Positions 3,001 to 63,391 of a DNA stretch of 64,000 nucleotides are shown here, piece by piece. The DNA comes from Candidatus Omnitrophota bacterium (GTDB lineage: Bacteria > Omnitrophota > Gorgyraeia > Gygaellales > Profunditerraquicolaceae). Position 1 is the first letter of the stretch, and every line of letters begins with the position of its first letter. The notes under the pieces were generated by a model. That model had not been told where the DNA came from and made no database searches. It saw only the letters and a list, made by a program, of their open reading frames with translations. The stretch covers positions 20,950 through 84,949 of the forward strand of contig JAQTQJ010000005.1 of assembly GCA_028712255.1 (NCBI GenBank), in the 5' to 3' direction. The translations under genes and the position numbers were made by a program.

Positions 3001-6000
3001 GGTTATTTTTGTCCATAGCCACGGCATAAAAAGAAGAAAAGAAGAGTTGAGAGCTTCTAGCATGGATGTTGATTTTGGCATAGCCTGGACAAGGTGGAGC
3101 TCTATTTTTAGAGTAGGATTATCAAATTCTCAAAGCGACCTAGTTATGGGGACAGGAGATAGCCATGATCTGATAATTAGCGAAACAAGGAATGGTTTTA
3201 AATTTCTTTTACTACATTGCAGCGTTCAAGAAAACTATGCCGTTTGTATGAGCAAAAAGTATAATTTTTCTACACACCGATGGGAGAATGAAGGAATAGA
3301 AAAAATAGAATTTGCTTCAGGTATTCCTGGCGCATCTTATGCTAAAAACGGGGGTGTAACTTTAGTTTGCAGAGATAACGCAGAGGCTTTGCCTACGGAT
3401 GCAGATTCGTGGGGACGGCGTTTAGCGTTGTCCCATGAAGCAATAAGCGCAGATTTTTTAAGTAACGGTGATTACGCCTGCGCCATAGCTGCTTTGAGGT
3501 TGGCATTAGTACATTTACCTAAAGGAGTGAAAAATAAAAATATAAGAGACAGGATTCAGGAAAAGCTAGCGCAGCTTATAGTAGGGCGGGAAGCATCTCA
3601 TCCTAATAATGGAAGCAATCATTCAGAATTAGATTTAGGCGCCTCTGGTTTCGAAGGCGAGGCAATGTTTGCAGAAAGAGCAGCAGAGGTTAAATATGCG
3701 CAGAGCCACTGCGTGAGTAAGCTTAATAATGATAATGAATTGATAGAAGGCGTACGCTGTTTCTTAAGGCAGCTTGATTTATTCCGATTGGCTGATAAAT
3801 ATAAAGAAATTGAGGTTCGGGTAATAGGAGGTATGGGATTTAAGCACCGCGGATGGTGGAATATTGAAAATGGTAGATTGATAATCTATATTAAAGAAAC
3901 ATACGCATCCGATGTTCTTGATTTACAGAAAGTAATTCTTCATGAGATACTGGCGGCAAGCAGAAATCCTGTTTTTGCCGGTAAAGAAGGGCACAATAAC
4001 AGCCTAGCCCTAGAATGTTTATATACCTCCTTCTGTTTGGATTCAAAGCAAATGACAATAGGCGAGTTATTAAGATCTTATGATCCACATGGATTGTTGC
4101 GTCGTATAATTTTCAGAGCTATTCTTTCTCATCAGGAAGTAATCGATGCGAAGCTAGATTTAGGCGCATCAGCCAAAAAACGCCAGCCTGAGCCTACCGT
4201 GTCTTCATTGTCAAGGGTAGCGAAAGTTATTTTATGTTTAATTTTAGCATCTGTAGTTATTGTAGCCCATGCGGTATGGTTATTATTGTTGATTATGTTC
4301 GGTGGTGCTTCACAATTTAATTTAATGGATATATTTGGGATAAATATTACATGGGGTTGGTTGATTATGATGGAGACTATGATTGCAGTGGGGTTAATGT
4401 TTGCTTCGTTTATCATGGATGATGGTTCTATAGTTATAAGCGATGTGAATCTGCATAAAGGCCATACATCTCCTAGGGCTACGGAGGAAGATATTGTGCT
4501 AAGCAATGAACAGGCTATAATGTGGATTCAAGTGAAGCAGGAGCAGGGAGCAAAAACAATCTCCGTTCTAGGCGGTAAACCGGTTAGTATCAAAGAAGCG
4601 ATAGAAGGTGTTAATGACGGAAGATTCGCTGGTTCTCTTACTGGAGGAGATAACAAGCTTATACTGCAGGTAAAGTATCCTTCTGAAAAATTACCTACCA
4701 ACGCTTACAATTCAGATGTTCCTTGCGCGACGCCTCCTGTCCTTACTATTATTGATACCTATGAGGCGGCAGAAGAATTCTTTATTCGCCGAGGCTGGAA
4801 ATCGTTACCGAGATGGGTGGTGGGAATATTTGTTAGCCCTTGGTATGAATTTCAATTCAAGTGGATTTTGCATCCTGTAAAATTTATAAGAGCGCACATT
4901 AATAAAAACATATGGCAGCTTATTTCGCGGATTACTGGCGTAATATTTATGTATGCGGCTATGCTATGTTTTCTATTTCCTGCCATATACCTGTTTTTAA
5001 CCGCGCCATCTTTTAACGTTCTGCCGAATATAATTCAATCCGTACTTTATGGCATCATGGCTTTTATCGGTGTGCACTTTGTATACAATATAGTATTCTT
5101 CTGGGCAATGCTAGTCTTAGGAGATGATTTGCGTTTTCATAGTGAATATAAGCGAGTTTTTACTGCTCAACAAATTCGAGGGTTTATTAGTTGGCTTATA
5201 GAAGGAGAATTGCAACATGAACGGCAGAGGATTGTTATTGGTTTTGTTGAGGGGTACTCAGAAGGTATTTTCCGGAGGGAGGGCGTACGTATTCATGTTG
5301 CCAAGGAATTTTTGGATAGTTTTAGTGAATTATTAATAAGGCAGAAATTACGAAATGCTCTTGTGGATAGGGATTACAAGGAACAGGATCAATATTCTCG
5401 CGCTTTAGAATTAATAATTCAGCAGGCCAATATTATTTTAGGGCCGCAATTGTTTGAAGATTCTTCCGTTGAAATAGTTGACTTAGCTAGGCGTTATCTT
5501 ATTGATGCAGTTGTCAAACATAGTGCTTGGCTTATTACTTTCAGCGGTATTTTGAGTGTGTGGGAAGGTGTTGTGCATAGTATGGAGAGCCAGGTAGATG
5601 CTCGCCAGTTCGGCGAATTTATGAATCGATTATACAGGATAGCTATAAAAGAGCTAGATGTTGAATGGGTTATACGTAAAGGAGCAGTATTGGACCGGGA
5701 GATAATGGTTGTTATTGGAAGAAAGATGCTTTCATTGATTCCTGATCATAATTTCGAACCCACTATTTATAGCGTTTTAATGATTACTCCGGATTTCTCC
5801 TTAGAGGAAGTTAGAAAACGCATTATGTATCTATTAAGTGATTGTATTACCGATGAAACAATTAATTCTTTAAAAGAAATTCTAGTTAAATTAGATAAGG
5901 AGAAAATTAATCCGGAAGCCCAAGCTAAAGTTATAATGGCTTTAAAATATCTTTGTTTTGATGTGAATCCTGGGATATCTAAATTTGCGCGTATTCTCTT

Positions 6001-9000: not shown

Positions 9001-12000
9001 TTTAGTAGGGACGGTTCTTGCTCTAATTGGTAAGCTGTCCCTTAAAAGGGGCACTTCTAGCTTTGACACAAGAAACGACCCTAAAAATGTACCGCCTTTC
9101 GTTTTTATATCAGATAAATTCACTTCGCGCGAGAAGCAATTGATTCAAAAAATAACAGCCGAAGTTATTGGTTTGCTTGTCCCTCAAGAGAAGCAGCAAA
9201 AACTAGCCCTACACCCACTTTTTTTCAAGAGAGTGAATGCGTTTGATGTGCTTGTGGATCATAAATTCATATGTACTTTGTACATTCTCAGTGTGTTAAT
9301 TATGTCAGTCGTGAACATCATACTAGGCAGAGATTTATTTTTTAATATTACGACATATCTAGTTGTAGTAGCAATATTATGGGTTGTCATAAACTATAAG
9401 TTCTATAGTTCGGATTTTTCGTATTATATTCAAGGAATAAGGAGGAGGCATAAAATTCTTATTGGCTCTTATATATTTGATGAGCAACTGGTCTCTATGG
9501 TAGCGCATGAAATGTATCATTATCTGAATTCCATTGGTTTAATTAAAAATCCTGATTTAACAACAGCTTTTGACATGCTTTTTACTTTGGAACACTTTGG
9601 GGAAGAAGCTCTTGATGATCATGATTGGTTGGAAGCTGGAGAGATACTTATGGGGATTCCAAATCCGGAAGTTAGGGAAAAAATTTTGTTAAAAACTGCA
9701 AGAATCAGCAGGTTTGCTTTATTGATGAGAAAAGTTTTCGGGTATTTACCTGAGAGATCATGGGGATATATGTATGGGCGCCTCCAAGCAGCCAATGCTT
9801 ATGCATTATCGAGTGTTTTGAATGGCCCACAAGAGGTCAGTTTTATTGCTCGGGATGCCTTGGAATACATAATATTACGCGTCCATGGCTATGAGCCTGG
9901 CGCGGCAGAAGAAACCATTAGAACATATATAAATAATAGGAACAGTTCTGCTTCCATTGGAAAACCCCATCACCTGCGCCCCGTTACGCAGTGGTTGGCT
10001 GGCCAGATTCTCAGGATTGTTGCTCGTCAAAAAGATAATATTTTCTTTAAAGTCTATCGGGAAACCTACAATGCCAACTTAGCCTACATTCAAGAAATCA
10101 ATGGCAACCGAGGCCCGCCTATATTAAAGAAATTTCTTGCTTTTACTCGCCCCATTGCCCGCGGCCTTACTCCTGATGGCGCTATCTGTTGGCTTATTCC
10201 GGTTAAATTTACTACTCAAGAATACCTTTCCGATGAAACCATTGCCTCTATTAGTAAACACGAATCCCAATCTACAGAATTAGAAGGCTTAATCGCGCAG
10301 TATAAATTAGGGACAGTTCTGAAACCAATAGAGAACCGTTTCTCATTTAAGGGGCATTTTAGTTTCGGCTCAATAATCGTCTTCAATAGTTTTTTGAGGC
10401 GCCTGTTTATTTTAGCGGCATTTATAAGTTTAGGAATAGGGCTTTTTTATGCCGCGAGCATAAGCGGGTTGATGAATTGGTATTTGGAAATAAAGGGAGT
10501 TATTCCTGAAGGCTCTTTGATAGGCTCGCCGAAAGCCATATTATTAGATATGCTCACGGGGGTATTGATTTGGGGCTTGCCTGATTTAGCCGGGCAGTAT
10601 TTAAAAGGCAGCCGCATAATATTAAAACAGGCCTTTATTTTGGCTTTTGCCGGTTTCTTTATCGGCGCCCTTTTGCATTTACTTTATAATTTTCCCGAGG
10701 CCGTTCTTCCCTATTTTATGTCACTTTTGGCAAGCAATATCCTGTTGGCAAAAGTGGCAGCCATAGGCGTTGTCCTGGTGATCGGCGTAGGCATCGCCGT
10801 AAGTTATGGCCGCCTCATCTCTTATTTAAAAGCTAATTTCAGAAAAGAAGAGGAAACCGGCAGAGGAATAGAGGCTTTGAAACTTTATGAAGTGCTCTTG
10901 TATAAACTTTTTGTAACTCCAGTTGTTTTAATTTTCATCGTTTTAACGTTTGAGCCGGTATTGCGTGTATTAGTTTCATTGCCTGTTGAAATAATAAAGA
11001 TGATACCGGTAGGGTACCTTATGAACCGTAGAGAGCCGCTTTTTATCACAGGTATTATTCAAAATATTGCTAGGTTTAAGCATTCTGTTGGATATGCCCG
11101 CGGGCGCAAGGATGTTTCTTCTATGCTTGATTCTCAAACTACAAGCGGCCCGGTAAATGGGGACGCTCCCCAAGGGGACACCCTTTATTGCAGCATTATT
11201 CCGGTTGACCCCGCATTATTGGCGCGTTGGGGTAAGCTATTAGCAGGGATACTTCTTAAGCTAATCGAAAAAGTGTCCTGTATCCGTGAAGGGGACAGGT
11301 TCAGCTTTGGTGTAAGAAGCGTCCTTAAATCTATAGGTATCGTAGCGGTTTTTGTGGGCAGCGCTTTTATGATGGCGCATGGGTTAAAGTCAACTGCCGG
11401 CACTGAAGGCTCTTTTGATGTGTATAGTTATATAGTAATTTTTGCCGTTAGTTTTTTAGCAGTATTGTATTGCGTGCTGTTCTTAGGGGCAGCGCTAATA
11501 AACGCTATGACAGATGAATCCGCCAAGAGGGCTTTTGAGAATCAATCTCTCGGGGTATATTATTTGAACCGTGGGGAATACAAAATGGCAAGCTGGTATT
11601 TCAGAAGGGCTGTAGAGTTTGCTCGTAATAGCAGAAAAGACAAATTCCGTTCCGCGTTGGTTGTGGAGAATGTTATGATGGAGGTTTCACGGACAGATTT
11701 CGTAAAAGCATGTGAGCGCGCGCTGGATGCGATACGCAGGTATTTAGATTTAGGCCAGGCCAGAAAAGCAGCTGATATAAAGGTAGGCATTGATAATTCA
11801 ACAACTACAATTATAGCGAGAGAAAACGTGAGGCAGCATGGCCCATTTATGGTTACAAATGAAGAGCCTTTTTCTCATGGCTGTCTGCAATCAGAAATAG
11901 TAAACGCCGATGATCCCTGCGTGCAAAGAATATTAACTGGCGCTTTCGGCGGATTTAACGCCAACAGCCGCTATTACCTTCTCTTTGGCCATTTAGATAT

Positions 12001-22337: not shown

Positions 22338-22394
22338 GCAGAACAAACATAAGCATAAGTAAGGACCGTCTGTTTTTATCTATTTGTAGATTAA

Positions 22395-23005
22395 TTAGTT
22401 CCAACGGAACGGTTCCGTTCTTTGAAAAGCTTGTTAGAAATATCTTCTTTCTCCGTCTATTGTCTTAGGAGGGAGGGTATATGGCAAGACAAGAGAGAAT
22501 TTACTTTGAGAATGCTGTTTACCACATAACAATAAGAGGTAATAATAAACAAAATATCTTGAAGCAAGACGAGGATAAAAAAAGTTTTCTTGAGTCTTTA
22601 GTAAGATTCAAATCTCGTTTTGGATTTAAGCTCCACGCTTTCGTTTTAATGGATAACCACGTTCATCTTATTATTGGGACTAACAGTAAGATAAATATAT
22701 CAAAGATTATGCATGCCATAACGCTGTCTTACAGCGTTAAGTTTAGGAGAAAGTATCTTTATTCTGGATACGTTTGGCAGGGAAGGTTCAAAAGTAATGT
22801 CATTGATGGTGATAGATATATTATTGAATGTTTAAACTATATCCATAACAATCCCGTAAGGGCAGGCATGGTTACAAGGGTCGAAGATTACTTTTGGAGT
22901 AGTTATCAATTTTGCAATGGATTAGAAAATAAAATTAAAGATTATATTCAGATAGATTGGTTTAAGGATAATTAAAAAGGGGACAGTTCCTTTGGAACGT
23001 TATAT
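22395..23005 (+). mobile_element. RAYT unit: tnpA(REP)-like gene bracketed by short palindromes, 22403-22419 aacggaacggttccgtt and 22979-22999 ggggacagttcctttggaacg.
   Basis: The hairpins share the GGGGAC(A/G)GTTC core with the dispersed hairpin family found elsewhere in the window. Confidence 0.6.
22481..22975 (+). CDS. REP-associated tyrosine transposase (RAYT, IS200/IS605 TnpA-like, HUH family).
   Basis: Motifs NAVYHITIRGNN, FVLMDNHVHLII (HUH), YVWQGRF (catalytic Tyr region) and NYIHNNPV. RBS ggagggagggtatATG. Flanked on both sides by GGAAC/GTTCC hairpins. Confidence 0.85.
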   Translation: MARQERIYFENAVYHITIRGNNKQNILKQDEDKKSFLESLVRFKSRFGFKLHAFVLMDNHVHLIIGTNSKINISKIMHAITLSYSVKFRRKYLYSGYVWQGRFKSNVIDGDRYIIECLNYIHNNPVRAGMVTRVEDYFWSSYQFCNGLENKIKDYIQIDWFKDN

Positions 23006-23786
23006 ATACCAAAAAGTTAGAAGGAAACGGTGCTGTGTAATAGATTATGCAAAAAATCTTCTTCAACAAGCTGAGATTTCTAGAGCAGGCAATTTAACAT
23101 TTATATTACATAGCGAAGCTAACAATGTGGCTTTTGATGGGATTTCTAGTATAGTTGATGACGCTAGAAAGAAAGGGATAAAAATCAATATTGTTAGCAT
23201 CGGATCACCGTCTCCATTTAGGACTATTGATTACCTTAAATTTTTAAAGCAGAATAAAGACATTGTAAGGTATGAAAATTTCGTTAATACAGCTGATCCT
23301 ATTGCTTGGTTGAGTCTGTCATTTTTGAATCCAGATACGCATTATATTCTTGGTTTAGATTTTATAGGAGCGCATGGGAGTTATTTTTCAGACTCAGGTG
23401 TAAGGCAAACCGCACTTTCAATGGCTACAGGAGTAAATATTCCTATTGGTTACTCTAATTTTTCTACTGGTTCTTTTTCTGATCCTTATTTTTCTGGTAC
23501 TTTTAGCGTGCGAGAGACAGTTATTTATCCTTCTCCAGATGTAAGAATTACCCAAACAAATATTACATCTAATTATGGTTCAAATTACCAGATTTTTTCG
23601 AATTCAAGTATTCCGTCTACTCAATTTGTTGCACCGCAACCATTTAATTCTTCATCAAATTATCAGGTGCCAGATTTTAGTTCTTGGAATGGTAGTAGTT
23701 TTAAACCTCTCCCAAGTATTGATTTTTCTCCGCCTAGTATTAGCATGCCCTCGAGTCCTATTCAAAGACCGGGTAATGGACCTTAA
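22992..23786 (+). CDS. Hypothetical protein with a Ser/Pro/Asn-rich C-terminal half. Start uncertain; TTG at 22992 per the ORF track.
   Basis: 264-aa ORF directly after the RAYT gene. No recognisable domain. Low-complexity S/P tail. Confidence 0.35.
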   Translation: MERYIYQKVRRKRCCVIDYAKNLLQQAEISRAGNLTFILHSEANNVAFDGISSIVDDARKKGIKINIVSIGSPSPFRTIDYLKFLKQNKDIVRYENFVNTADPIAWLSLSFLNPDTHYILGLDFIGAHGSYFSDSGVRQTALSMATGVNIPIGYSNFSTGSFSDPYFSGTFSVRETVIYPSPDVRITQTNITSNYGSNYQIFSNSSIPSTQFVAPQPFNSSSNYQVPDFSSWNGSSFKPLPSIDFSPPSISMPSSPIQRPGNGP

Positions 23787-29764: not shown

Positions 29765-29899
29765 TGTCATTGCGAGCCCGTTATATTAGTCATTACGAGG
29801 AGCGAAGCGACGAAGCAATCTCTAAAAATGGGATTGCTTCGGGCACTTCGTGCCCTCGCAATGACGGAGTTGGTTTTATTCGGCTCCTCGCAATGACAA
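29765..29899 (+). repeat. Family II palindromic element, copy 2. Extended or double unit with four CATTGCGAG/CTCGCAATG half-sites.
   Basis: Same core as copy 1. Overlaps the 5' end of ORF 29737 and supplies the ATG at 29893. Confidence 0.8.
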
Positions 29900-32188: not shown

Positions 32189-32263
32189 GTGTCATTGCGA
32201 GGAGCCGAAGGCGACGAAGCAATCCAAATCGAGATTGCTTCGCCCTGCGGGCTCGCAATGACG
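32189..32263 (+). repeat. Family II palindromic element, copy 3.
   Basis: gtgtcattgcgaggagccgaaggcgacgaagcaatcc...gattgcttcgccctgcgggctcgcaatgac. Confidence 0.8.
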
Positions 32264-33455: not shown

Positions 33456-33535
33456 GTGTCATTGCGAAGAGCCAAGCGACGAAGCAATCTTTTATTAGAT
33501 TGCTTCGTCCGCCTTCGGCGGACTCGCAATGACAC
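33456..33535 (+). repeat. Family II palindromic element, copy 4.
   Basis: gtgtcattgcgaagagccaagcgacgaagcaatc...gattgcttcgtccgccttcggcggactcgcaatgacac. Confidence 0.8.
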
Positions 33536-33554
33536 AAGCATATTTAAAAAATCA

Positions 33555-34787
33555 GTGAAAAAATATTATTTTCTCGTCTTTGCGCTAATTTTTACGGTTA
33601 TCACCAGTATTTCCTGCGCCCCTTCTCCCAAGGTTTTTATTAAACAACTCAAAAACCAGCATTATCAACTTATCGTTAACGGTCGCCCGTATGTTGTCAA
33701 AGGGGTTTGTTATAACCCAATCCCGATAGGCCAGAATCATGAATATGATTGGTGGAGTGATCCGAATAAGCCCTGGATTGTTGACGGGAAACTTATGAAG
33801 GATATGGGGGTTAATACTATTCGTCTTTATCAAGCGCATGATAATCCTGAGGAGGTAAAACAAGTAATTCGAGACCTGTATAATTTGTATGGAATCCGTA
33901 CTCTTTTAGGTGATTGGTTGGGCTTCTGGGAGTATCCCTGCCCTTTTTATGGTGACAAAAAATTTCAGGATAAGGTAAAGGCCCAGGTATTGGAGATGGT
34001 TAATCTCTATAAAGATGAACCCGGAATTTTAGGCTGGATTTTGGGAAATGAGAATAATTATTCCTGCCTTGGACATGTAAATCCCTGGTCAAGCCCAGAG
34101 GTTGATCAAGAACCTGATCCACAGAAACAAAAATTGATGCGTGCAAAAATTTATTATTCTTTTGTAAATGATTTATCTAAGGAAATACATAAGGTTGACC
34201 TAAAGCATCCTGTAGGATTGGGTAATGGCGAATTAGTAGGTTTAGATTCTGCCAATAAATTTTGTCAGGATGTTGATTTTGTAGCCTGTATAATTTACCG
34301 TGGTAAAACCTTCGGCAACCTTTTTAATTCCCTCAAAGCAACATTTGATAAGCCGATGCTGTTAGCAGAATTTGGCGCGGATTGTTATGATGCTTATCTT
34401 AAGAAGGAAGATCAAAATATGCAGGCGTTTTTCTTGCAATCACAGTGGGAGCAGATTTACAAAAACTTAGCCAATAAAAAAGAAGGCGTAGGTAATTGTA
34501 TAGGCGGAACAATTTTTGAATGGGTGGATGAATGGTGGAAATATGCTTCTGATAATCCGCAAGGATGGAAAGTTCATAATACCGAGAGCGGTTGGTCTAA
34601 TGGAAGCTATTATTTTGATATCCGCGCACAAAATAATATGAATATGAATGAAGAATGGTTTGGTATTGTTGCATTAGGAGAGCAGTTGGAAAACGGTTTA
34701 AATAAGCGCATACCGCGTAAGGCTTATTATGTAATTAGGGAGTTTTGGAAGAATCCGGTAGTTAAAAAAACGCGTAAGAAGAAATAA
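33555..34787 (+). CDS. Clan GH-A glycoside hydrolase paralog. Start tentatively GTG 33555, because the ORF 5' part lies in a repeat element.
   Basis: NTIRLYQ, ILGNENNY, LLAEFGADCY, FEWVDEWWKY. Lipoprotein-like N-terminus ...ITSISCAP. Confidence 0.6.
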   Translation: MKKYYFLVFALIFTVITSISCAPSPKVFIKQLKNQHYQLIVNGRPYVVKGVCYNPIPIGQNHEYDWWSDPNKPWIVDGKLMKDMGVNTIRLYQAHDNPEEVKQVIRDLYNLYGIRTLLGDWLGFWEYPCPFYGDKKFQDKVKAQVLEMVNLYKDEPGILGWILGNENNYSCLGHVNPWSSPEVDQEPDPQKQKLMRAKIYYSFVNDLSKEIHKVDLKHPVGLGNGELVGLDSANKFCQDVDFVACIIYRGKTFGNLFNSLKATFDKPMLLAEFGADCYDAYLKKEDQNMQAFFLQSQWEQIYKNLANKKEGVGNCIGGTIFEWVDEWWKYASDNPQGWKVHNTESGWSNGSYYFDIRAQNNMNMNEEWFGIVALGEQLENGLNKRIPRKAYYVIREFWKNPVVKKTRKKK

Positions 34788-34791
34788 AACA

Positions 34792-34838
34792 AAGGGGACG
34801 GTTCTCTTAAAAAAGAGAACCGTCCCCTTTATTTTTAA
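34792..34838 (+). terminator. Terminator / REP-like hairpin aggggacggttctc-ttaaaaaa-gagaaccgtcccct + TTATTTTT.
   Basis: 14-bp perfect stem followed by a T-tract. Confidence 0.7.
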
Positions 34839-34850
34839 GACGGAGGCCGT

Positions 34851-36416
34851 ATGACAGTTTTCTTAAAATACTTATTGACAATTTTTTTAAGTTTATTTTT
34901 ATGCCTGCCTTCACTTTACTCTGTTGAGCAGACAAGCTGTTCTTCTATTGAAGAATCCAAGATAAAATATTTGGCAGTCAATCAGTATAATGAATTTATT
35001 GACTTCCTCAGCAATTTTAAAGAGAAAGATTTAGTTAACCAGCTTTGTCTTAATTATTATAAAGCGCAAGCGCGTTACCTGCAACTTAAGTATTTAGAAG
35101 AAAAGCAATCCTGGGATGATTATTTTACTAATGGCAACAGCTATCGCCAGCAGTTAGAGCAGAGCGCCCAGAAAGTTATCAGCCAGGCTCAAACCGATAA
35201 TCCCTTAAGGCTAAAAGCCAGGCTTTTACTTTGGCAATACCATCACGGCCAGCAGGATGTTCTTGCTCAGGCTGCCTTAGATGACCTGCTTACAGACGTT
35301 GGCGCTTATGCTAAAGATGAAAGAAATCCGGGGTTAATTAAAAATATTGCCGATACTCTTTTGGCTGGCGAAGAAAAGTCAAAGGCCCGCCAAATCTATA
35401 AACTTTATGTCGACCAGCTTATCGCAGGCGAGATTACTGATGCGCAGCTCAAAAGCATAGCAGGCGCTTCCTATAAGGAAGGCAATGTAGAATTAGCCGA
35501 GGTTCTTTATAATATTTATATAAATATTTGTATAGAAAAGATTTCAAAAACTCTTGAACCGGAAAAATTTATCCAGGAGTTATTTGAAGTTGCCAGCCTT
35601 TTCGTCTATAAGCCGCAAGGTTTATATGATATGGCTTATGCTGAAGAAATCTATTCCAAGATAGAAGGGTTAGGCAAAGCAGATGTTTTTAACCAGACGA
35701 CAATCTACTTGCGCGCATTTAACTTAGAGAAACTAAGAGATTATAAGGGGGCAATAAAACTTTATCTGCAGTTGATCCAGCTTTATCCCGACAGTAAAAT
35801 TTTTGACGAGGCCAATTATAAAATTGCTATGATTAATGCGTATGTATTCTCTAATATAAAAGAAGCAAAAAAATACTTTAATATACTTGCGGCAAAACAA
35901 GAGTTTAGTCCCCATGTTATTTCCAGTTTATACCAGTTAGGGTTGTTGGCGCAATGGGAAGGGGATTTAGTCAAAGCCAAAGAGTATTATGAGCTATTGT
36001 TGAAGAATGCTGTAGATCAATACCCTTCAGTTGTTGACCGGGCTAAGGAAAGGCTCAAGGAAATCCAGGAAAATAAACAGCTCGACTACAATTTAAAAAC
36101 ATTTTTAGACCTTTGTTTTAAAAATGAAAATTCTCTCAGTGAAATGGGCAAAGCAGAATTGAAATCTTCAAGTTATGTATTAAAAAAAGGAGAGCCGGTT
36201 ACAGTTTTCTCTTCTGTTAATATGCCTCAGAGTGGCTGCAACCAGGTCCAATTGCAGTATCTCTGGAGCGGTGATATAGGTGATGTTATTTCCCCGGTAA
36301 ACAATGATAGTCTTCAATGTAACTATTCCGATCCCGGGACAAAAGCAATAAATATGGTTACGATTTCACCTTCAGGGACTATAGACCGTTCTTTTACCAT
36401 GGTGGATGTCTATTAA
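34851..36416 (+). CDS. Secreted alpha-helical (TPR-like) protein; hypothetical.
   Basis: Signal peptide and helical repeat composition. Followed by a strong terminator hairpin. Confidence 0.4.
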   Translation: MTVFLKYLLTIFLSLFLCLPSLYSVEQTSCSSIEESKIKYLAVNQYNEFIDFLSNFKEKDLVNQLCLNYYKAQARYLQLKYLEEKQSWDDYFTNGNSYRQQLEQSAQKVISQAQTDNPLRLKARLLLWQYHHGQQDVLAQAALDDLLTDVGAYAKDERNPGLIKNIADTLLAGEEKSKARQIYKLYVDQLIAGEITDAQLKSIAGASYKEGNVELAEVLYNIYINICIEKISKTLEPEKFIQELFEVASLFVYKPQGLYDMAYAEEIYSKIEGLGKADVFNQTTIYLRAFNLEKLRDYKGAIKLYLQLIQLYPDSKIFDEANYKIAMINAYVFSNIKEAKKYFNILAAKQEFSPHVISSLYQLGLLAQWEGDLVKAKEYYELLLKNAVDQYPSVVDRAKERLKEIQENKQLDYNLKTFLDLCFKNENSLSEMGKAELKSSSYVLKKGEPVTVFSSVNMPQSGCNQVQLQYLWSGDIGDVISPVNNDSLQCNYSDPGTKAINMVTISPSGTIDRSFTMVDVY

Positions 36417-36436: not shown

Positions 36437-36495
36437 AGGGACCGTTTCTATTTTTTTTAAAAAAAATAGAAACGGTCCCTTTCCTTTTTTTGTTT
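36437..36495 (+). terminator. Terminator / REP-like hairpin gggaccgtttcta...tagaaacggtccc + TTTCCTTTTTTT. An inverted half-site tagaaccgccccc lies at 36510-36523.
   Basis: 13-bp stem with an AT loop, followed by a T-tract. Confidence 0.65.
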
Positions 36496-36636
36496 TAAAA
36501 ACAAACAAAAAATAGAACCGCCCCCTTAGATTTAAACATTCACTTTTCTTGAAATCGCTTGACTTAAGAGTTTTTTAGTAGTACAGTAAAATTAATATTT
36601 TATTTAACTTTTTAGAAAGCTAAGTAATTTTATATT

Positions 36637-42583: not shown

Positions 42584-42663
42584 AATCTAGGGGACGGTTC
42601 TATTTTTCTGCCGTCTAGTTGAGTAGGAAAATAGAATTGCCCCCCTTGTTTTTCAATATCCCC

Positions 42664-44577
42664 ATGAAAAATTTTGATGTAATCGTTATCGGTGCCGGCC
42701 ATGCCGGTATTGAAGCAAGCCTGGCGTGCGCCCGTATGGGCGCTAGAACCCTTATGCTTACTCTGGATATTAATTCTATCGGAAGGATGAGTTGCAATCC
42801 GGCTATCGGTGGAGTAGGTAAGGGCCAGTTGGTAAAAGAGATTGATGCTTTAGGCGGACAAATAGGTATTGCTACCGATGCCTGCGCAATTCAATTTCGT
42901 ATTCTTAATTCTTCCAAAGGCCAAGCTGTTCAGTCATCGCGGGCCCAGATTGATATGCACAGATATAGCCGTTATATGCGTGGAATAGTTTTACATCAGA
43001 AGAATTTAACGGTAAAAGAAGCGCAGGTAAGAAAATTAATTGTAGAAGATGGCAGAGTTTTGGGGGTAATTACGGATAATGAAAAGATTCGTTCTAAAAG
43101 TGTAGTTATATGCCCGGGAACATTCCTAGATGGTGTAATTCATATAGGATTAAAACATTTTAGTGCCGGGCGTATCAATGAGCGTGCTTCTATAGGCCTG
43201 GCGGATAATTTAAAAAGCCTAGGTTTTAACCTATTACGTTTTAAAACCGGAACCTGCCCGCGCCTGGATAAGCGTACAATTGAATTCTCTAATCTGATAA
43301 TCCAAGAAGGTGATTTAATCCCTAAGCCTTTTTCATTCTCAACCAAACAAATAAAACAAAAACAAGTTCCTTGCCACATCACTTATACCAATAAGAGTAC
43401 TCATGAGATAATTCGCGCTAACCTTGATCGCTCGCCGCTTTATGCAGGGATAATTAAAGCTACAGGCGTTAGGTATTGCCCTTCAATTGAAGACAAGATT
43501 GTTAAATTTGCAGGCAAAGAACGCCACCAGGTATTTCTGGAACCTGAAGGTTTAGGGGTTAATGAAATTTATCCTAATGGCATATCTACCAGTTTGCCTG
43601 AAGATGCGCAGCTTAAACTTTTGCATTCTATTTCGGGCTTAGAGAAAACAAAGGTTATCCGTTTTGGTTATGGTATTGAACATACCGTAGTTGACCCCAC
43701 GCAGCTTTTCCCAACTCTGGAGACAAAGCTAATTAAAAATCTTTATTTGGCTGGCCAAATTAACGGCACAACCGGTTATGAAGAAGCAGCCGCGCAGGGA
43801 TTGGTTGCCGGAATTAATGCGGCTTTACGTTTAAAAAATAAGGAACCTCTAATTTTGGACCGCGCAAGCAGTTATATCGGCGTATTAATTGATGATTTAA
43901 CTACTAGGGGGACTCTTGAGCCATACCGGATGTTTACCTCAAGAGTAGAATATCGTCTGGTTATCCGTGAAGATAATGCGGATTTGCGCCTGGGAAAAGT
44001 AGGTTTTGAGTTGGGGTTGGTGAAAAAAAATGTTTATCGTAAAATAAAAAAGAAAGCGGATGGCATTAAAGAAGGGATGGAATTTTTAAGAAAAACGCGG
44101 ATTAATTGTCCTGTTGGCCATTCTGAGCCCGCCGCTTTAGGCGGCGAGGCGAAGAATCTAAGATTGGTAACCCTAGAAAAATTATTGAAGCGGCCGCAAA
44201 TAACGATCAAAGATTTAAAGAAGATGCATAAATTAAAAACAGGTATACCCGAATCTGCTTGGCAACAGATTCAAATCGAGGTAAAATATGCTGGATTTAT
44301 CCAGAGGCAACTTAAAGATGTAGAACGGTTTGAGCATCTAGAAAAAATTAAATTGCCGCAAGATTTTGATTATAGCAGTTTGTCTGGAATATCCCTGGAG
44401 ATAAGAGAAAAACTGGCTAAATTTAAACCGCTTAACTTGGGGCAGGCGTCGCGTATTTCAGGAGTAACCCCGGCAGCCGTATCTCTTTTGATGGTTTATT
44501 TGCGAAAATGTAACAGCTTTCGGAATTCAGCGACGAGTGTCATTGCGAGCGACCGAAGGGAGCGAAGCAATCTTTAA
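42664..44577 (+). CDS. mnmG: tRNA uridine 5-carboxymethylaminomethyl modification enzyme MnmG (GidA). The last roughly 20 codons read into a repeat element.
   Basis: MKNFDVIVIGAGHAGIEA FAD motif. GidA-family sequence throughout. Confidence 0.9.
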   Translation: MKNFDVIVIGAGHAGIEASLACARMGARTLMLTLDINSIGRMSCNPAIGGVGKGQLVKEIDALGGQIGIATDACAIQFRILNSSKGQAVQSSRAQIDMHRYSRYMRGIVLHQKNLTVKEAQVRKLIVEDGRVLGVITDNEKIRSKSVVICPGTFLDGVIHIGLKHFSAGRINERASIGLADNLKSLGFNLLRFKTGTCPRLDKRTIEFSNLIIQEGDLIPKPFSFSTKQIKQKQVPCHITYTNKSTHEIIRANLDRSPLYAGIIKATGVRYCPSIEDKIVKFAGKERHQVFLEPEGLGVNEIYPNGISTSLPEDAQLKLLHSISGLEKTKVIRFGYGIEHTVVDPTQLFPTLETKLIKNLYLAGQINGTTGYEEAAAQGLVAGINAALRLKNKEPLILDRASSYIGVLIDDLTTRGTLEPYRMFTSRVEYRLVIREDNADLRLGKVGFELGLVKKNVYRKIKKKADGIKEGMEFLRKTRINCPVGHSEPAALGGEAKNLRLVTLEKLLKRPQITIKDLKKMHKLKTGIPESAWQQIQIEVKYAGFIQRQLKDVERFEHLEKIKLPQDFDYSSLSGISLEIREKLAKFKPLNLGQASRISGVTPAAVSLLMVYLRKCNSFRNSATSVIASDRRERSNL

Positions 44578-44613
44578 AGATTGCTTCGTCGCTGTCGCTC
44601 CTCGCAATGACAC
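44537..44613 (+). repeat. Family II palindromic element, copy 5, at the mnmG 3' end.
   Basis: gtgtcattgcgagcgaccgaagggagcgaagcaatc...gattgcttcgtcgctgtcgctcctcgcaatgacac. Confidence 0.8.
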
Positions 44614-45359: not shown

Positions 45360-45439
45360 GTGTCATTGCGAGTCCGCCGAAGGCGGACGAAGCAATCTAA
45401 TAAAAGATTGCTTCGTCGCTATCGCTCCTCGCAATGACA
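45360..45439 (+). repeat. Family II palindromic element, copy 6. A degenerate short relative gtcattcccgctttcgcgggaataac lies at 52398-52426.
   Basis: gtgtcattgcgagtccgccgaaggcggacgaagcaatc...gattgcttcgtcgctatcgctcctcgcaatgacac. Confidence 0.8.
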
Positions 45440-53947: not shown

Positions 53948-54433
53948 ATGGATGAGATCTTAGAGATTTTAGAAAAAGATGGCCGGGCAAGTATAGAAGA
54001 TATTGCCAAGATGACCTGCAGGAAGCCTGAGGACGTTAAAAAAGCGATTAAGAAATACGAAAAAGAGGGAGCAATTTTAAAATATAAGGCAGTAATTAAC
54101 AAGGATTTGGTTAGAGATAATGAATCTGAGGTTAGGGCTTTAATTGAAGTGAATATCGTTCCGCAGAAGGATCTGGGTTTTGAGAAGATTGCCGAGCGCA
54201 TCTATTCGTTTCCTGAGGTCACTAGCTGTTATTTAATCAGCGGCACATATGATTTACTGGTGGTTGTAGAAGGTAAGAATTTGCATACGGTTTCCAATTT
54301 TGTGGCAGAGAAGCTTTCCTGTTTAGAAAATGTGCGCGGCACAGCGACACATTTTTTATTAAAGAAATACAAGGAAGACGGAGTAATCCTGAAGCAGAAG
54401 TCGGAGAATAAGAGGATAGCGATATCCTATTAA
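53948..54433 (+). CDS. Lrp/AsnC family transcriptional regulator.
   Basis: N-terminal HTH (ILEILEKDGRASIEDIAKMT) plus a RAM domain. Confidence 0.75.
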   Translation: MDEILEILEKDGRASIEDIAKMTCRKPEDVKKAIKKYEKEGAILKYKAVINKDLVRDNESEVRALIEVNIVPQKDLGFEKIAERIYSFPEVTSCYLISGTYDLLVVVEGKNLHTVSNFVAEKLSCLENVRGTATHFLLKKYKEDGVILKQKSENKRIAISY

Positions 54434-54435
54434 AC

Positions 54436-54500
54436 AAGCTGTCAGCTGTAAGCGGTAAGTTTTAAGCTTACAGCTTATAACTTAAAGCTTATGGCTTAGT
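54436..54500 (+). repeat. Family III palindromic element (GTAAGCGG.AAGTTTTAAGCTTACAGCTTATAACTTAAA core).
   Basis: Related copies at 60886-60952 and 62910-62976. Nested inverted repeats ctgtaagc/gcttacag. Confidence 0.65.
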
Positions 54501-54518
54501 TTTTAGGGCCTATAAAAA

Positions 54519-58656: not shown

Positions 58657-58686
58657 GGCGTTCTATGAAAATAGAGCGCCTTTTTT
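58657..58686 (+). terminator. Leader intrinsic-terminator-like hairpin (ggcgttctat gaaa atagagcgcc + TTTTTT) between the promoter motif and the OM-protein gene.
   Basis: 10-bp stem followed by a T6 tract. Further hairpin/T-tract structures at about 58697-58716 and 58770-58800. Confidence 0.45.
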
Positions 58687-59657: not shown

Positions 59658-60884
59658 ATGAATTCAGGTGATACAGCATGGGTTTTAATTTCATCAGCCC
59701 TTGTTTTACTGATGACTCCCGGCCTTGCTTTTTTCTACGGAGGCATGGTGCGGCGCAAAAATGTTTTAAGTGTTTTGATGCAATGTTTTATTATCATGTG
59801 TGTTTTAAGCCTTCAGTGGGTTTTGGTTGGTTATAGCCTATCTTTTCATCCGGGAAATGGATTTTGGGGAGGTTTACAATGGATGGGTTTAAATGGAGTA
59901 GGTTTAGAGCCTTACGCGGACTACGCAGGGTCAATACCACATCAAGCGTTTATGGTCTTTCAAGGGATGTTTGCCATAATTACACCGGCTTTGATTATTG
60001 GCGCGTTTGCCGAAAGGATGAAATTTTCCGCGTTTTTGATTTTTACTTTGCTTTGGGCAACGTTTGTTTATGATCCTTTATGCCACTGGGTTTGGGGAAT
60101 GGGTGGTTGGTTAAGAAATTTAGGCGCTTTGGATTTTGCCGGAGGTACGGTTGTGCATATCAATGCCGGTATTGCAGCTTTGGTTACGGCAATCGTATTA
60201 GGTAAAAGAAGTAACCTGGATAAAAATGTTCCTACGCCGCATAACATGCCTTTTGTGGTTTTAGGCACAGTGCTTTTGTGGTTTGGTTGGTTTGGTTTTA
60301 ATGCCGGCAGTGCGTTAGCGGCAAACGGCTTAGCGGTAAATGCGTTTGTGGTAACTAATACCGCAGCAGCGGCTGCGGGTTTAGCTTGGGCTTTGATCGA
60401 ATGGATGCATAATGGAAAGCCTACCATTTTTGGTGTCTGTTCTGGTGCAGTCGCAGGCTTAGTCGCGATTACTCCTGCAGCAGGTTTTGTGGGTGTAATT
60501 GGAGCTATAGTTATTGGTTTATTGGTGAGTGTAGTTTGTTTTATTGCCGTGACTGTAATCAAGCCGCTTTTTGGTTATGATGATTCTTTGGATGCATTTG
60601 GCGTACACTGTGTAGGAGGAATCTGGGGGGCGTTAGCTACAGGATTATTTGCTTCTAAGCTGATTAATCCTGCTGGAGCCAATGGGTTATTTTTTGGTAA
60701 TCCTAAACAATTCCTGACACAGGCTTTAGCTGTAGGTGTAACCATTGTTTATACAGGAGTTGTAACCTTTATTATTTATAAATTAGTGGATATTTTTATT
60801 GGGGTTAGGGTTGATGAGAAGTCAGAAGCTATAGGTCTTGACCTTACCCAGCATCGTGAGAGGGCATATACGATACTTGAATGA
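59658..60884 (+). CDS. amt: Ammonium transporter, copy 1.
   Basis: DFAGGTVVHINAGIAALV Amt signature. 11 TM helices. Confidence 0.9.
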   Translation: MNSGDTAWVLISSALVLLMTPGLAFFYGGMVRRKNVLSVLMQCFIIMCVLSLQWVLVGYSLSFHPGNGFWGGLQWMGLNGVGLEPYADYAGSIPHQAFMVFQGMFAIITPALIIGAFAERMKFSAFLIFTLLWATFVYDPLCHWVWGMGGWLRNLGALDFAGGTVVHINAGIAALVTAIVLGKRSNLDKNVPTPHNMPFVVLGTVLLWFGWFGFNAGSALAANGLAVNAFVVTNTAAAAAGLAWALIEWMHNGKPTIFGVCSGAVAGLVAITPAAGFVGVIGAIVIGLLVSVVCFIAVTVIKPLFGYDDSLDAFGVHCVGGIWGALATGLFASKLINPAGANGLFFGNPKQFLTQALAVGVTIVYTGVVTFIIYKLVDIFIGVRVDEKSEAIGLDLTQHRERAYTILE

Positions 60885-60885
60885 A

Positions 60886-60952
60886 AGCTCTAAGCCATAA
60901 GCCGTAAGCGGCAAGTTTTAAGCTTACAGCTTATAACTTAAAACTTAGAGCT
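60886..60952 (+). repeat. Family III palindromic element between amt1 and glnB1. An exact second copy lies at 62910-62976.
   Basis: agctctaagccataagccgtaagcggcaagttttaagcttacagcttataacttaaaacttagagct. The outer agctctaag/cttagagct and inner gtaagc/gcttac arms are inverted repeats. Confidence 0.65.
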
Positions 60953-60974
60953 AGAGTTTACAAAGGAGGATAAT

Positions 60975-61316
60975 ATGAAACTAGTGATTGCTATAATTCA
61001 ACCGTATAAGCTAGAAGAAGTAAAGGAGGAGCTGTATAAGGTAGAAGTAAACCTGATTACCGTAAGCGAAGTTTTAGGCCATGGCCGCCAGAAAGGTATC
61101 ACTGAAGTCTACCGCGGTTCTAAAGAAACCGGGAATCTCCTGCGAAAAATCCGCCTTGAGATTGCCGTAAACGATAATTATCTTGAACCGACAATCAAGG
61201 CAATTGTTAAAGGCGCCAAAACCGGTGAAACCGGAGATGGAAAAATATTTGTCCTCGATCTTAAAGAATGCATCCGTATCCGCACTGAAGAACGCGGGGC
61301 AGTGGCGATAGGGTAG
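60975..61316 (+). CDS. glnB: P-II nitrogen regulatory protein, copy 1.
   Basis: GHGRQKG and TGETGDGKIFV P-II motifs. T-loop YRGS. Confidence 0.9.
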   Translation: MKLVIAIIQPYKLEEVKEELYKVEVNLITVSEVLGHGRQKGITEVYRGSKETGNLLRKIRLEIAVNDNYLEPTIKAIVKGAKTGETGDGKIFVLDLKECIRIRTEERGAVAIG

Positions 61317-61525: not shown

Positions 61526-61681
61526 CGCCAGAAATCGTGGCGAATCCGCCATGTATTATGGCGGAATTTACTTACCCTATTTTTACGCAATTGGTTATCC
61601 AGTTGAGCAAATTAATCGAAACAGTTTCCAGCCCAATCGGGAAATGGGGTTTAAGAGAAGAAACTATTTATGGGAGGTGAG

Positions 61682-62908
61682 ATGATTAATCAAGCGGATA
61701 CGTTGTTTGTTCTGATGTCGGCGGCGTTTGTAATGCTGATGACTCCCGGCCTTGCTTTTTTCTACGGAGGCATGGTCAGGCGCAAGAATATTTTAAGCGT
61801 TTTAATGCAATGTTTTGTTGCTTTATGTCTGTTGTCTTTACAATGGATAATTTTTGGTTATAGCCTATCTTTTGCTCCAGGAAATGGGTTTTGGGGAGGC
61901 CTTAGTTGGTTTGGTTTAAACGGAGTGGGGGCAGCTCCTTATGCGGGTTATTCTGTGACTATTCCGCATCAGGCATTTATGGTTTTTCAGATGATGTTTG
62001 CTGTTATAACTCCAGCGCTTATTATTGGTGCTTTTGCCGAAAGGATGAAGTTTTCGGCTTTCTTAGTTTTCACCCTACTTTGGGCAACCTTTGTTTATGA
62101 TCCTTTGTGTCACTGGATTTGGGGAGTAGGAGGTTGGCTTAGAAACCTTGGCGTGCTTGATTTTGCCGGAGGTATTGTTGTGCATACTAGCGCCGGAATT
62201 GCAGCTTTAGTTTCTACTATTATCATTGGTAAAAGAAAGAACTTGGAGCATACACCGTCTCCACATAACCTCCCTTTTGTAGTTTTAGGAACTGCGCTTT
62301 TATGGTTTGGCTGGTATGGTTTTAATGCCGGCAGCGCTTTGGCGGTAAATGGAATTGCAGTAAGCGCTTTTATTGCTACTAATACTGCTGCAGCCGCAGC
62401 CGGTTTAAGCTGGGCGTTCTTGGAGTGGATACGTAATGGCAAACCTACGGTTTTTGGTATTGTAACCGGTTCGATTGCTGGGCTTGCCACTGTTACTCCT
62501 GCTTCGGGATTTGTAAGCCCGATTTCAGCAATTATTATCGGTATTGCTGCCAGTATAATTTGTTTTATCGCGGTTGCAGTAACTAAACCGCGGTTTGGTT
62601 ATGATGATTCTTTGGATGCCTTCGGCGTGCATGGCGTAGGAGGAATACTGGGTACGCTTTTAACCGGGGTATTGGCTTCTAAAGCAATAAATCCGGCAGG
62701 AGCGGACGGTTTATTATATGGTAATCCTAAGCAGTTACTTATACAATTATTGGCGGTTACGGTTGCAGTAAGCTATACTTTTATTGCTACTTTTATTATT
62801 TATAAGCTCGTAGATATTTTCTTTAGGATGCGTGTAAGTGAGAAAGATGAGCTGGTCGGTCTTGACCTTACCCAGCATCGTGAGAGGGCATATACGATAC
62901 TTGAATGA
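61682..62908 (+). CDS. amt: Ammonium transporter, copy 2. Start set at ATG 61682, which has a ggaggtgag RBS.
   Basis: About 80% identical to copy 1. DFAGGIVVHTSAGIAALV. Confidence 0.9.
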   Translation: MINQADTLFVLMSAAFVMLMTPGLAFFYGGMVRRKNILSVLMQCFVALCLLSLQWIIFGYSLSFAPGNGFWGGLSWFGLNGVGAAPYAGYSVTIPHQAFMVFQMMFAVITPALIIGAFAERMKFSAFLVFTLLWATFVYDPLCHWIWGVGGWLRNLGVLDFAGGIVVHTSAGIAALVSTIIIGKRKNLEHTPSPHNLPFVVLGTALLWFGWYGFNAGSALAVNGIAVSAFIATNTAAAAAGLSWAFLEWIRNGKPTVFGIVTGSIAGLATVTPASGFVSPISAIIIGIAASIICFIAVAVTKPRFGYDDSLDAFGVHGVGGILGTLLTGVLASKAINPAGADGLLYGNPKQLLIQLLAVTVAVSYTFIATFIIYKLVDIFFRMRVSEKDELVGLDLTQHRERAYTILE

Positions 62909-62998
62909 AAGCTCTAAGCCATAAGCCGTAAGCGGCAAGTTTTAAGCTTACAGCTTATAACTTAAAACTTAGAGCTAGAGTTTACAAAGGAGGATAAT

Positions 62999-63340
62999 AT
63001 GAAACTAGTGATTGCTATAATTCAACCGTATAAGCTAGAAGAAGTAAAGGAGGAGCTGTATAAGGTAGAAGTAAACCTGATTACCGTAAGCGAAGTTTTA
63101 GGCCATGGCCGCCAGAAAGGTATCACTGAAGTCTACCGCGGTTCTAAAGAAACCGGGAATCTCCTGCGAAAAATCCGCCTTGAGATTGCCGTAAACGATA
63201 ATTATCTTGAACCGACAATCAAGGCAATTGTTAAAGGCGCCAAAACCGGTGAAACCGGAGATGGAAAAATATTTGTCCTCGATCTTAAAGAATGCATCCG
63301 TATCCGCACTGAAGAACGCGGGGCAGTGGCGATAGGGTAG
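62999..63340 (+). CDS. glnB: P-II nitrogen regulatory protein, copy 2. Identical nucleotide sequence to copy 1.
   Basis: Exact duplicate of 60975-61316. Confidence 0.9.
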   Translation: MKLVIAIIQPYKLEEVKEELYKVEVNLITVSEVLGHGRQKGITEVYRGSKETGNLLRKIRLEIAVNDNYLEPTIKAIVKGAKTGETGDGKIFVLDLKECIRIRTEERGAVAIG

Positions 63341-63345
63341 GAAAA

Positions 63346-63391
63346 CCAGGTGACGGTTCTCTTTCTTAAGAGAACCGTCACCTGGTTTTTA
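63346..63391 (+). terminator. Rho-independent terminator / REP-like hairpin ccaggtgacggttctc-tttcttaa-gagaaccgtcacctgg + TTTTT.
   Basis: Perfect 16-bp stem followed by a T-tract. Member of the GGGGACGGTTC hairpin family. Confidence 0.7.

Follow-up and report, generated by a model that had tools for sequence, protein, structure and literature searches.

Does a transposase-family gene in an uncultivated bacterial phylum come with repeats of its own, and which repeats would they be? The question is raised by a 64-kb stretch of DNA of a Candidatus Omnitrophota bacterium (about 39 % G+C, hereafter the window), which encodes at 22481..22975(+) a protein of the RAYT type (REP-associated tyrosine transposase, REP standing for repetitive extragenic palindrome). 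Almost all that has been worked out about REP/RAYT systems concerns Proteobacteria. An initial annotation of the window had read the gene and the hairpins around it as a RAYT with its cognate REP family. We find that the gene lies in a cassette of about 670 bp (22363-23033) formed by two 55-nt units in inverted orientation around it, and that palindromes with the end motifs of these units are dispersed in the window. At a probability of roughly 70 %, we favor the reading that a single-copy, vertically inherited RAYT-type nuclease resides in a cassette resembling those with terminal inverted repeats (TIR), and that the dispersed palindromes are relatives of its units, comparable to REPINs or to TIR dimers.

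The comparison set consists of about 15 Omnitrophota relatives with proteins 51-87 % identical to the window RAYT. Every open reading frame (ORF) of the window that looks like a real gene is on the plus strand.

A nuclease of the TnpA_REP family

The 164-aa protein contains HVHLII and YVWQGRF, as the initial annotation had stated, and its membership in the RAYT (TnpA_REP) family is supported by hidden Markov models, by sequence comparison with the PDB and by comparison of folds. Y1_Tnp is the only Pfam domain of the protein (E 7.8e-18). The NCBIfam model REP_Tyr_transpos (NF047646) scores 95 bits with a cut-off of 80, and the IS200/IS605 model NF033573 remains at 32.6 bits, under its cut-off of 55. 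The exact protein also occurs in the Logan assemblies of SRR22315508 and SRR22315506. Homologues come almost all from metagenome-assembled genomes (MAGs) of Candidatus Omnitrophota, and a profile of 29 homologues finds a single sequence match in the PDB, E. coli TnpA_REP (4ER8). The AlphaFold model of the window protein (pLDDT 79) has 4er8_A as its best fold match over the full length (E 7e-9, TM 0.68), followed by the transposases of IS200, IS608 and ISDra2 (E about 1e-5, TM 0.42-0.50).

The HUH/Y1 signature had been placed in HVHLII and YVWQGRF. It holds for the family assignment, with HUH corresponding to H60-V-H62, and fails for the catalytic tyrosine. In E. coli TnpA_REP the catalytic residue is Y115 and a metal ligand is N119 (Messing et al. 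2012, PMC3479197); they align with Y120 and N124 of the window protein. H60-V-H62, W99-Q-G-R-F103, Y120 and N124-P125 are invariant across the 29 homologues. Because Y115 aligns with Y120 and Y120 is invariant in the family, the predicted catalytic tyrosine is that of YIHNNPV and not that of YVWQGRF, the latter holding the WQxRF motif typical of RAYT.

The gene lies between two inverted 55-nt units

The gene had been described as bracketed by two palindromes, and both strings are present: the perfect 17-nt palindrome aacggaacggttccgtt at 22403-22419 and ggggacagttcctttggaacg at 22979-22999. They do not stand as a pair of hairpins, the real flanks being the 55-nt inverted units. The upstream palindrome is a mutated copy of a AGAACTGTCCCC box that is conserved in about 15 relatives, and the downstream hairpin GTTCC-TTT-GGAAC has a stem of only 5 bp. 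The locus also does not end at 23005 as proposed, since the right unit runs on to 23033.

The cassette layout is kept around the gene in about 15 Omnitrophota genomes, and the closest relative, L203, is laid out as the window is. In an alignment of flank units from the window and 14 relatives (A2), 27 of 27 units align without any gap. Each unit has a GGGGACAGTTCT end toward the gene and a AGAAACGGTC end exactly 41 nt off, and this spacing of proximal and distal half-sites is constant across all relatives and the window. On the downstream side of the cassette the relatives read GGGGACAGTTCTATCGTAAC...AAATAGAAACGGTCT, and the upstream side carries such a unit in reverse complement. In the window the left unit spans 22363..22417(-), is read as the reverse complement, aligns without gaps with the 26 other units and holds the palindrome at 22403-22419. 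Its outer (22363-22375, GGACCGTCTGTTT) and inner (22404-22416, GGAACCGTTCCGT) half-sites, both on the minus strand, are degenerate, with position weight matrix (PWM) scores of 12.9 and 12.1 bits. The right unit is its inverted counterpart in A2 (22979..23033, plus strand), with an inner half-site GGGACAGTTCCTT at 22980-22992(+) scoring 19.0 bits and, at the 41-nt offset, an outer half-site AAGGAAACGGTGC at 23021-23033(+) scoring 15.0 bits.

A conserved block leads from the left unit to the start codon (22417..22480, plus strand). Its boxes, common to the relatives and in the same order, are GTTCTTTGAAA (22417-22427), TGTTAGAA (22432-22439), CGTCTATT (22454-22461) and AGGAGGGAGGG (22467-22477), all on the plus strand. 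In the relatives they read GTTCTTTGAAA, TGTTAGA and CGTCTAnT, followed by a ribosome-binding site and ATG; the order is the same in L003, L004, L006, L007, L009-L014 and L203. This block probably supplies the RAYT gene with its promoter, its leader and its ribosome-binding site; TTAGAA and TCTAnT, separated by a 16-17 nt spacer, are candidate promoter elements. A sigma-70 scan did not pick up this promoter.

The two ends of a unit can pair with each other as GAC.GTTCTAT / ATAG.AAC.GTC, leaving one A.G mismatch and one bulged A. This imperfect hairpin, which we named by hand, is 79.6 % paired across the alignment compared to 32-54 % with slid partners, and compensatory changes occur at columns 20/53 and 21/52. 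Among the units folded, the sole clearly stable one is the left unit of L012 (-13 kcal/mol, z -4.6). The alignment thus gives moderate support to a hairpin that we consider plausible.

Two features of the gene borders concern the right unit. The TTG start called for a 264-aa ORF (22992..23786, plus strand; no Pfam match) falls within the unit. The homologue in L203 begins 83 nt past the RAYT stop, outside the unit, and the true start in the window is probably further downstream. In L008, L016, L018 and L020, near locus coordinate 10488, the proximal half-site of the right unit (GGGACA(C/T)TTCT..) is located within the 3' end of the RAYT coding sequence and not past the stop.

Dispersed palindromes carry the end motifs of the cassette

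Four intergenic loci of the window hold five palindromic elements with the cassette end motifs GGGGACGGTTCT... or ...AGAAACGGTCCC. We refer to this dispersed family of GGGGACNGTTCT and AGAAACGGTCCC palindromes, to which no strand is assigned, as family A. All copies are intergenic, directly behind plus-strand genes and between A and T tracts.

The palindrome AAAACAAAGGGGACGGTTCTCTT-aaaa-AAGAGAACCGTCCCCTTTATTTT (34786..34835) overlaps the stop codon of the ORF 33456..34787; its 23-nt arms are 96 % complementary, it folds as single-stranded DNA at -23.3 kcal/mol (z -9.3) and it ranks first among the terminator-like sites of either strand, with the look of a bidirectional terminator. The palindrome AGGGACCGTTTCTATTTTTT-ttaa-AAAAAATAGAAACGGTCCCT (36437..36480), after the ORF 34851..36416, has perfect arms of about 20-22 nt with a 4-nt loop and, with its T tract, resembles a terminator. 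The right arm is identical to the outer consensus derived from the relatives' RAYT flanks: ATAGAAACGGTCC at 36439/36466 fits 13 of the 13 positions of the distal consensus and scores 21.4 of a possible 21.9 bits. About 30 nt past this palindrome stands a solitary half-site AGGGGGCGGTTCTATTTTTT (36507..36526, minus strand; 12.8 bits). Between a ribonucleotide reductase gene and mnmG lies the imperfect palindrome GGGGACGGTTCTATTTTTCT-15 nt-AGGAAAATAGAATTGCCCCC (42590..42644), with a weaker fold (-10.8 kcal/mol, z -4.1); GGGACGGTTCTAT at 42591 fits 12 of 13 positions of the proximal consensus, and the 20-mer GGGGACGGTTCTATTTTTCT is found identical in L012:173-238 in unrelated surroundings. Directly after a P-II gene is AAAACCAGGTGACGGTTCTCTT-tctt-AAGAGAACCGTCACCTGGTTTT (63342..63389), with perfect arms of 22 nt and a fold of -26.5 kcal/mol (z -11.9). 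With the exception of 42590, the dispersed palindromes fold as single strands at -23 to -28 kcal/mol with z of -7.6 to -12.

Hairpins are thus found at all the places where the core GGGGAC(A/G)GTTC had been said to recur, and the core itself at only some of them. The palindrome at 36437-36480 carries GGGACCGTTTCT / AGAAACGGTCCC, which is related to the core without being the core; 36515(-) holds GGGGGCGGTTC and 63349/63372 hold GGTGACGGTTC, the core with one mismatch in each case. Flank units and dispersed palindromes have end motifs of 12-13 nt in common. They differ in loop length and pairing, and the flanks do not reproduce the dispersed elements as such. The arms of the dispersed copies fit the flank consensus of the relatives better than the window's own flanks do.

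At 58657-58680 a terminator-like hairpin GGCGTTCTATGAAAATAGAGCGCC is followed by TTTTTT. It has GTTCTAT/ATAGA in common with the arms of family A and may be a degenerate member.

The motif is enriched in the window and follows the short RAYT form

GGGGACRGTTC occurs exactly four times in the window (22979+, 34794+, 34817- and 42590+) whereas 100 dinucleotide-preserving shuffles predict 0.05; allowing up to two mismatches raises the count to 29, versus 12.6 expected. We also trained a separate PWM on the flanks of the relatives only and masked the cassette in the window. This matrix finds 13 window sites of at least 12 bits (4.7 expected) and 3 of at least 18 bits (0.06 expected), and none of 200 shuffles reached either count. 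These motif-level results support a link between the RAYT flanks and the dispersed hairpins.

The core GGGACGGTTCT goes with the short form of the RAYT. The window (64 kb) has 4 copies of it, the loci with the short form (187 kb) another 4 and the loci of other RAYT relatives (986 kb) none; a GACACC-type motif has the corresponding counts of 0, 1 and 80. Hairpins of the core stand at L004:4078 and L012:173 among the short-form loci, and one of a variant at L005:7870.

The distant RAYT relatives (L021-L082, for example L025, L035, L039, L046 and L050) are 37-48 % identical to the window protein, mostly about 225-240 aa long, and belong to Omnitrophota, Planctomycetota and Patescibacteria. On either side of their genes stands, again inverted, a flank motif of their own, the GACACC-type one with 80 copies in the 986 kb; it reads GAGTTCTGACACC, GAACTGACACCAATTATT, GAGAAACGACAC or GAGAAACGACACTATTT and is often in tandem arrays (L046, L029, L024).

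The core is found well beyond the source organism

We scanned metagenomes with the pattern GGGACNGTT-N10-40-AACNGTCCC and obtained at least 120 loci (L083-L202), a scan that gives neither abundance nor taxonomy. The matches listed come from metagenomes of termite gut, human gut, rhinoceros, soil and reactors. A strong bias persists among them even where the pattern sets no base, with G/C in 75 of 124, CT next in 65 of 124 and G before in 74 of 124; GGGGACGGTTCT is therefore a conserved core far outside the source organism as well. Five of the matches listed carry the Omnitrophota-type arm AAATAAAGGGGACGGTTCTATTTTT, and a RAYT-like ORF was seen in 1 of the at least 120 loci, among the matches listed.

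In the metagenome palindromes (for example L120, L132, L142, L143 and L167) the core reads (G)GGGACGGTTCT / AGAACCGTCCC(C) and the outer arm sequences are source-specific. In many of these arms the bases around the core are self-complementary (GTGTCAag-core-gcTGACAC), and each arm could form a small hairpin with the core in the loop. The histidine kinase of the termite-gut contig L142 has its best named homologues in Desulfobulbus and then in Treponema MAGs, an ambiguous taxonomy in which the nearest homologues are not Omnitrophota.

In the contig L177 (30 % G+C), 10.4 kb contain 11 copies of GGGGAC(G/A)GTTAA, which lie to either side of a RAYT-like gene. The copies are at 350-650, 5799-5930, 8754 and 10093, three of them being tandem palindromic units, and the RAYT-like ORF encodes 302 aa (9045-9959, minus strand). 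L177 is an independent parallel that speaks for the reading we favor.

A tblastx comparison (E 1e-6) of 2 kb on each side of the hairpins in L004, L005, L012 and five metagenome contigs gave no match in the window, which argues that these are not inherited orthologous sites. Given the short flanks, we take the unrelated surroundings as a hint of mobility and against simple vertical inheritance of the sites.

One hypothesis that we hold only tentatively, and consider doubtful as a whole, is that GGGGAC(N)GTT is an ancient recognition or cleavage signature of a large RAYT/TIRYT clade across phyla (TIRYT, TIR-associated tyrosine transposases), the motif being present in Omnitrophota, L177 and L142. 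Omnitrophota would have recruited palindromes derived from it as their principal strong terminators, active in both directions, and purifying selection would keep the short RAYT, which lacks a helix-turn-helix (HTH) domain, along with its two flank units of fixed length, as the enzyme that maintains them.

Terminators or relatives of the flank units

The anatomy of the dispersed copies suggests that they most likely act now as strong bidirectional intrinsic terminators: sites 34786 and 36437 lead the terminator scan, and 42590 and 63342 have the same anatomy. One may ask whether they are anything else. The hairpins could be ordinary intrinsic terminators that the RAYT ignores, with a likeness to the flanks that stems from old common descent or from selection on a G-rich clamp plus T tract; the cassette would then be a self-contained domesticated gene whose flank units are only self-regulatory. 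Textbook terminator anatomy, the location of all dispersed copies after stop codons and their perfect pairing, unlike that of the flank units, agree with this explanation, and so do the few dispersed copies in the relatives and the lack of exact recurrence of flank k-mers. The GGGACGGTTCT core is moreover not bound to the source organism, since palindromes with it turn up in very diverse metagenomes. We nevertheless regard plain terminators as unlikely. Conservation at the free positions of the metagenome pattern is unexpected for unrelated terminators, arms are identical or nearly so between species in unrelated gene contexts, one arm agrees at 13 of 13 positions with the flank consensus of the relatives, and the core is absent from the 986 kb of loci with other RAYT forms.

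Under the reading that we favor, the dispersed palindromes are relatives of the cassette units. By analogy with E. coli TnpA_REP, the enzyme would bind the folded motif on single-stranded DNA and would cut with Y120 and the metal ion bound by the HUH motif. Such cutting would thereby seed or maintain copies of the motif. Our data show the family of the protein, the anatomy of the cassette and its conservation, the kinship of the motifs and where they lie; cleavage, mobilization and termination are inferences.

A number of results weigh against this reading. The half-sites of the window's own flanks are degenerate, at 12.1-19.0 bits compared to 17-22 in most relatives; the ORF itself is intact. 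For the 27 flank units RNAalifold gives no consensus structure, and single-strand folds of the window, L006 and L011 units are weak (-3.5 to -7.6 kcal/mol, z about 0.6 to -2.1). The dispersed copies have short loops and are perfect palindromes, without the mismatch and the bulge of the flank units. In E. coli, RAYT binding is lost when the stem mismatch is removed (PMC3479197), and the dispersed copies have none. The association of the core with the short RAYT is confounded with phylogeny, the same clade carrying both, and palindromes count twice in the motif tallies. A half-site PWM scan at 13.5 bits covered the window plus the loci of 17 relatives (287 kb in total, the relatives' loci reaching within 10 kb of the gene) and found 17 half-sites away from the gene compared to 11.3 expected. 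Ten of the 17 are in relatives, which indicates that most relatives are without a dispersed family within 10 kb of the gene. Exact 14- or 16-mers of the window RAYT flanks do not recur in the 64 kb, so that the k-mer criterion of Bertels is negative at window scale. A free 5' GT[AG]G tetranucleotide, which the initial annotation had proposed to look for, adjoins none of the flank units or dispersed palindromes; the TAG within nTAGAAACGG belongs to the paired arm. What survives of the proposed RAYT with cognate REP family is therefore the link at motif level, with neither a GTAG tag nor flank k-mer recurrence, and with sparse copies in the relatives.

A single-copy, vertically inherited gene

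The window holds one copy of the RAYT gene and the genomes of close relatives hold one RAYT locus each. Neighbor genes on one or both sides are common to four pairs of loci (window/L009, L016/L020, L005/L012 and L007/L018), in which the RAYT proteins are only 52-60 % identical. Within the 64 kb covered the gene is single-copy, and the common neighbors indicate vertical inheritance. A single locus with common neighbors is the behavior of domesticated RAYTs and not of insertion sequences (Bertels 2017, PMC5581495).

That the cassette is instead an autonomous IS200-like insertion sequence, a still transposing TIRtron with the 55-nt units as its ends, is very improbable. The idea draws on a transposase-family gene between inverted terminal units of fixed length and on the occurrence of the cassette in several genomic contexts across the clade. 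With IS200/IS605 TnpA the window protein also has the HUH/Y1 fold and the Pfam domain in common. It differs in falling below the IS200 cut-off, in its low fold similarity (TM 0.42-0.50) and in being single copy, and both-side neighbors are retained between genomes despite the divergence of their proteins. IS200/IS605 ends keep the same orientation, and those of the cassette are inverted. In the window these ends are degenerate while the ORF is intact. Neither tnpB nor any transposase domain was found among the neighboring ORFs, which together with the IS200 score goes against a canonical IS200/IS605 TnpA accompanied by tnpB.

Comparing the window with L009 (22976-25307 versus L009:1992-2356), genes are common to both sides of the cassette. 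Between the cassette and the PilZ genes the window has two ORFs without L009 counterpart, the 264-aa ORF and a 444-aa PD40 beta-propeller protein. The difference is an insertion or deletion adjoining the cassette.

Comparison with known systems

RAYT-like genes with long flanking inverted repeats have been named TIRtrons and their proteins TIRYT (Di Nocera et al. 2013, PMC3733652). Many TIRtron repeats are at a fixed distance from the gene and have GGGGWSAS in common, and some belong to moderately abundant dispersed families, often as dimers (PMC3733652). Quentin et al. 2018 (PMC6006769) place TIRYT as subclass 2.1 of TnpA_REP-like proteins, all members having a C-terminal HTH domain. The organization that we describe fits the TIRtron/TIRYT type better than the canonical REP/REPtron. 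In both, a RAYT-like gene lies between long inverted repeats at fixed distance and has dispersed relatives of these repeats; GGGGACAG of the relatives' units and of the window right unit fits GGGGWSAS, the window left unit being degenerate. The window protein differs in being 164 aa long with Y1_Tnp only, whereas subclass 2.1 has a C-terminal HTH (Bac_DnaA_C, HTH_23 or HTH_28). At Pfam E<=0.01 no HTH domain was found in four relatives of about 230 aa or in the 302-aa L177 protein either. Further differences are the bipartite units with their strict 41-nt spacing, the dispersed copies that read GGGGACGG and have terminator anatomy, and the host, Candidatus Omnitrophota being outside the taxa described.

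With the E. coli TnpA_REP and its REP/BIME REPtron (4ER8), the system has in common the HUH, the catalytic tyrosine and the asparagine ligand, as well as a single-copy gene and inverted repeats able to pair as an imperfect hairpin with a conserved mismatch. The proteins are only 19 % identical and E. coli H123 is without counterpart (A128 in the window protein). REPs are 20-40 nt long, whereas the window flank units have 55 nt and a loop of about 30 nt. The REPIN-RAYT systems of Pseudomonas and Enterobacteria (Bertels and Rainey 2011; PMC5581495) likewise have a single-copy, vertically inherited RAYT and extragenic dispersed palindromic doublets. There a flanking 16-mer has tens to hundreds of occurrences in a genome, whereas none recurs in the window and the density in the relatives is low. 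A REP with a CGTC tag (Di Nocera 2013: unpaired CGTC, stem of 8-9 bp, loop of 4-5 nt, CCA tail) was considered as well and rejected, the CGTC being inside the paired arm AGAACCGTCCCC.

Work on TIRYT has so far stopped at cataloguing, and the papers cited contain no biochemistry on them. The locus and its about 15 relatives offer a well-delimited substrate for this class: a clade of an uncultivated phylum, two half-sites and a 41-nt spacing. It allows a test of whether TIRYT-type enzymes cut GGGGWSAS-type motifs and whether domesticated RAYTs supply terminators. For those who annotate Omnitrophota MAGs, the locus accounts for a "transposase" call that keeps recurring and is no insertion sequence. 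While the kind of element is already known, the phylum, the strictly fixed geometry of the units and the cross-phylum core are of interest. Literature searches with the core strings returned primer matches only, and a search on RAYT in Omnitrophota returned nothing relevant.

Other repeats and genes of the window

Two other hairpin families are present in the window, in which Rfam at gathering thresholds has zero matches. Family B is intergenic and occurs in both orientations at 29811-29841, 32213-32244, 33478-33509, 44563-44588 and 45386-45417, and in L011 at 5585-5614 and 9171-9198, reading (GA)CGAAGCAATC(T/C)..loop..GATTGCTTCG(TC). An asymmetric tail GCT(A/G)TCGCTCCTCGCAATGACAC is conserved in at least three of the copies, together with a head similar to CGCCGAAGGCG. 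The family is thus common to two species, and no gene was found to go with it. Family C (AGCTCTAAGCCATAAGCCGTAAGCGGCAAGTTT / AAGCTTACAGCTTATAACTTAAAACTTAGAGCT) is a palindrome family at 54426-54507, 60886-60952 and 62910-62976.

That family B (GACGAAGCAATCT...AGATTGCTTCGTC with a CGCTCCTCGCAATGACAC tail) or family C, and not family A, is the true cognate repeat of the RAYT can hardly be maintained: family B does have five window copies compared to four intergenic loci of family A, is also present in L011 and has an asymmetric conserved tail like canonical REPs, but the motifs of both families are absent from the RAYT flanks of the window and of every relative, whose ends are common with family A only.

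The window has a tandem amtB/P-II duplication (59658-61316 and 61670-63340), and each of its two copies has a family C palindrome separating amtB from the P-II gene; another stands between the gene of an AsnC-type regulator and an aminotransferase gene. One third of the window is taken by a single ORF of 7245 aa (59-21796, plus strand), the last 1265 residues of which are dense HEAT repeats (HEAT_2, E 4e-116).

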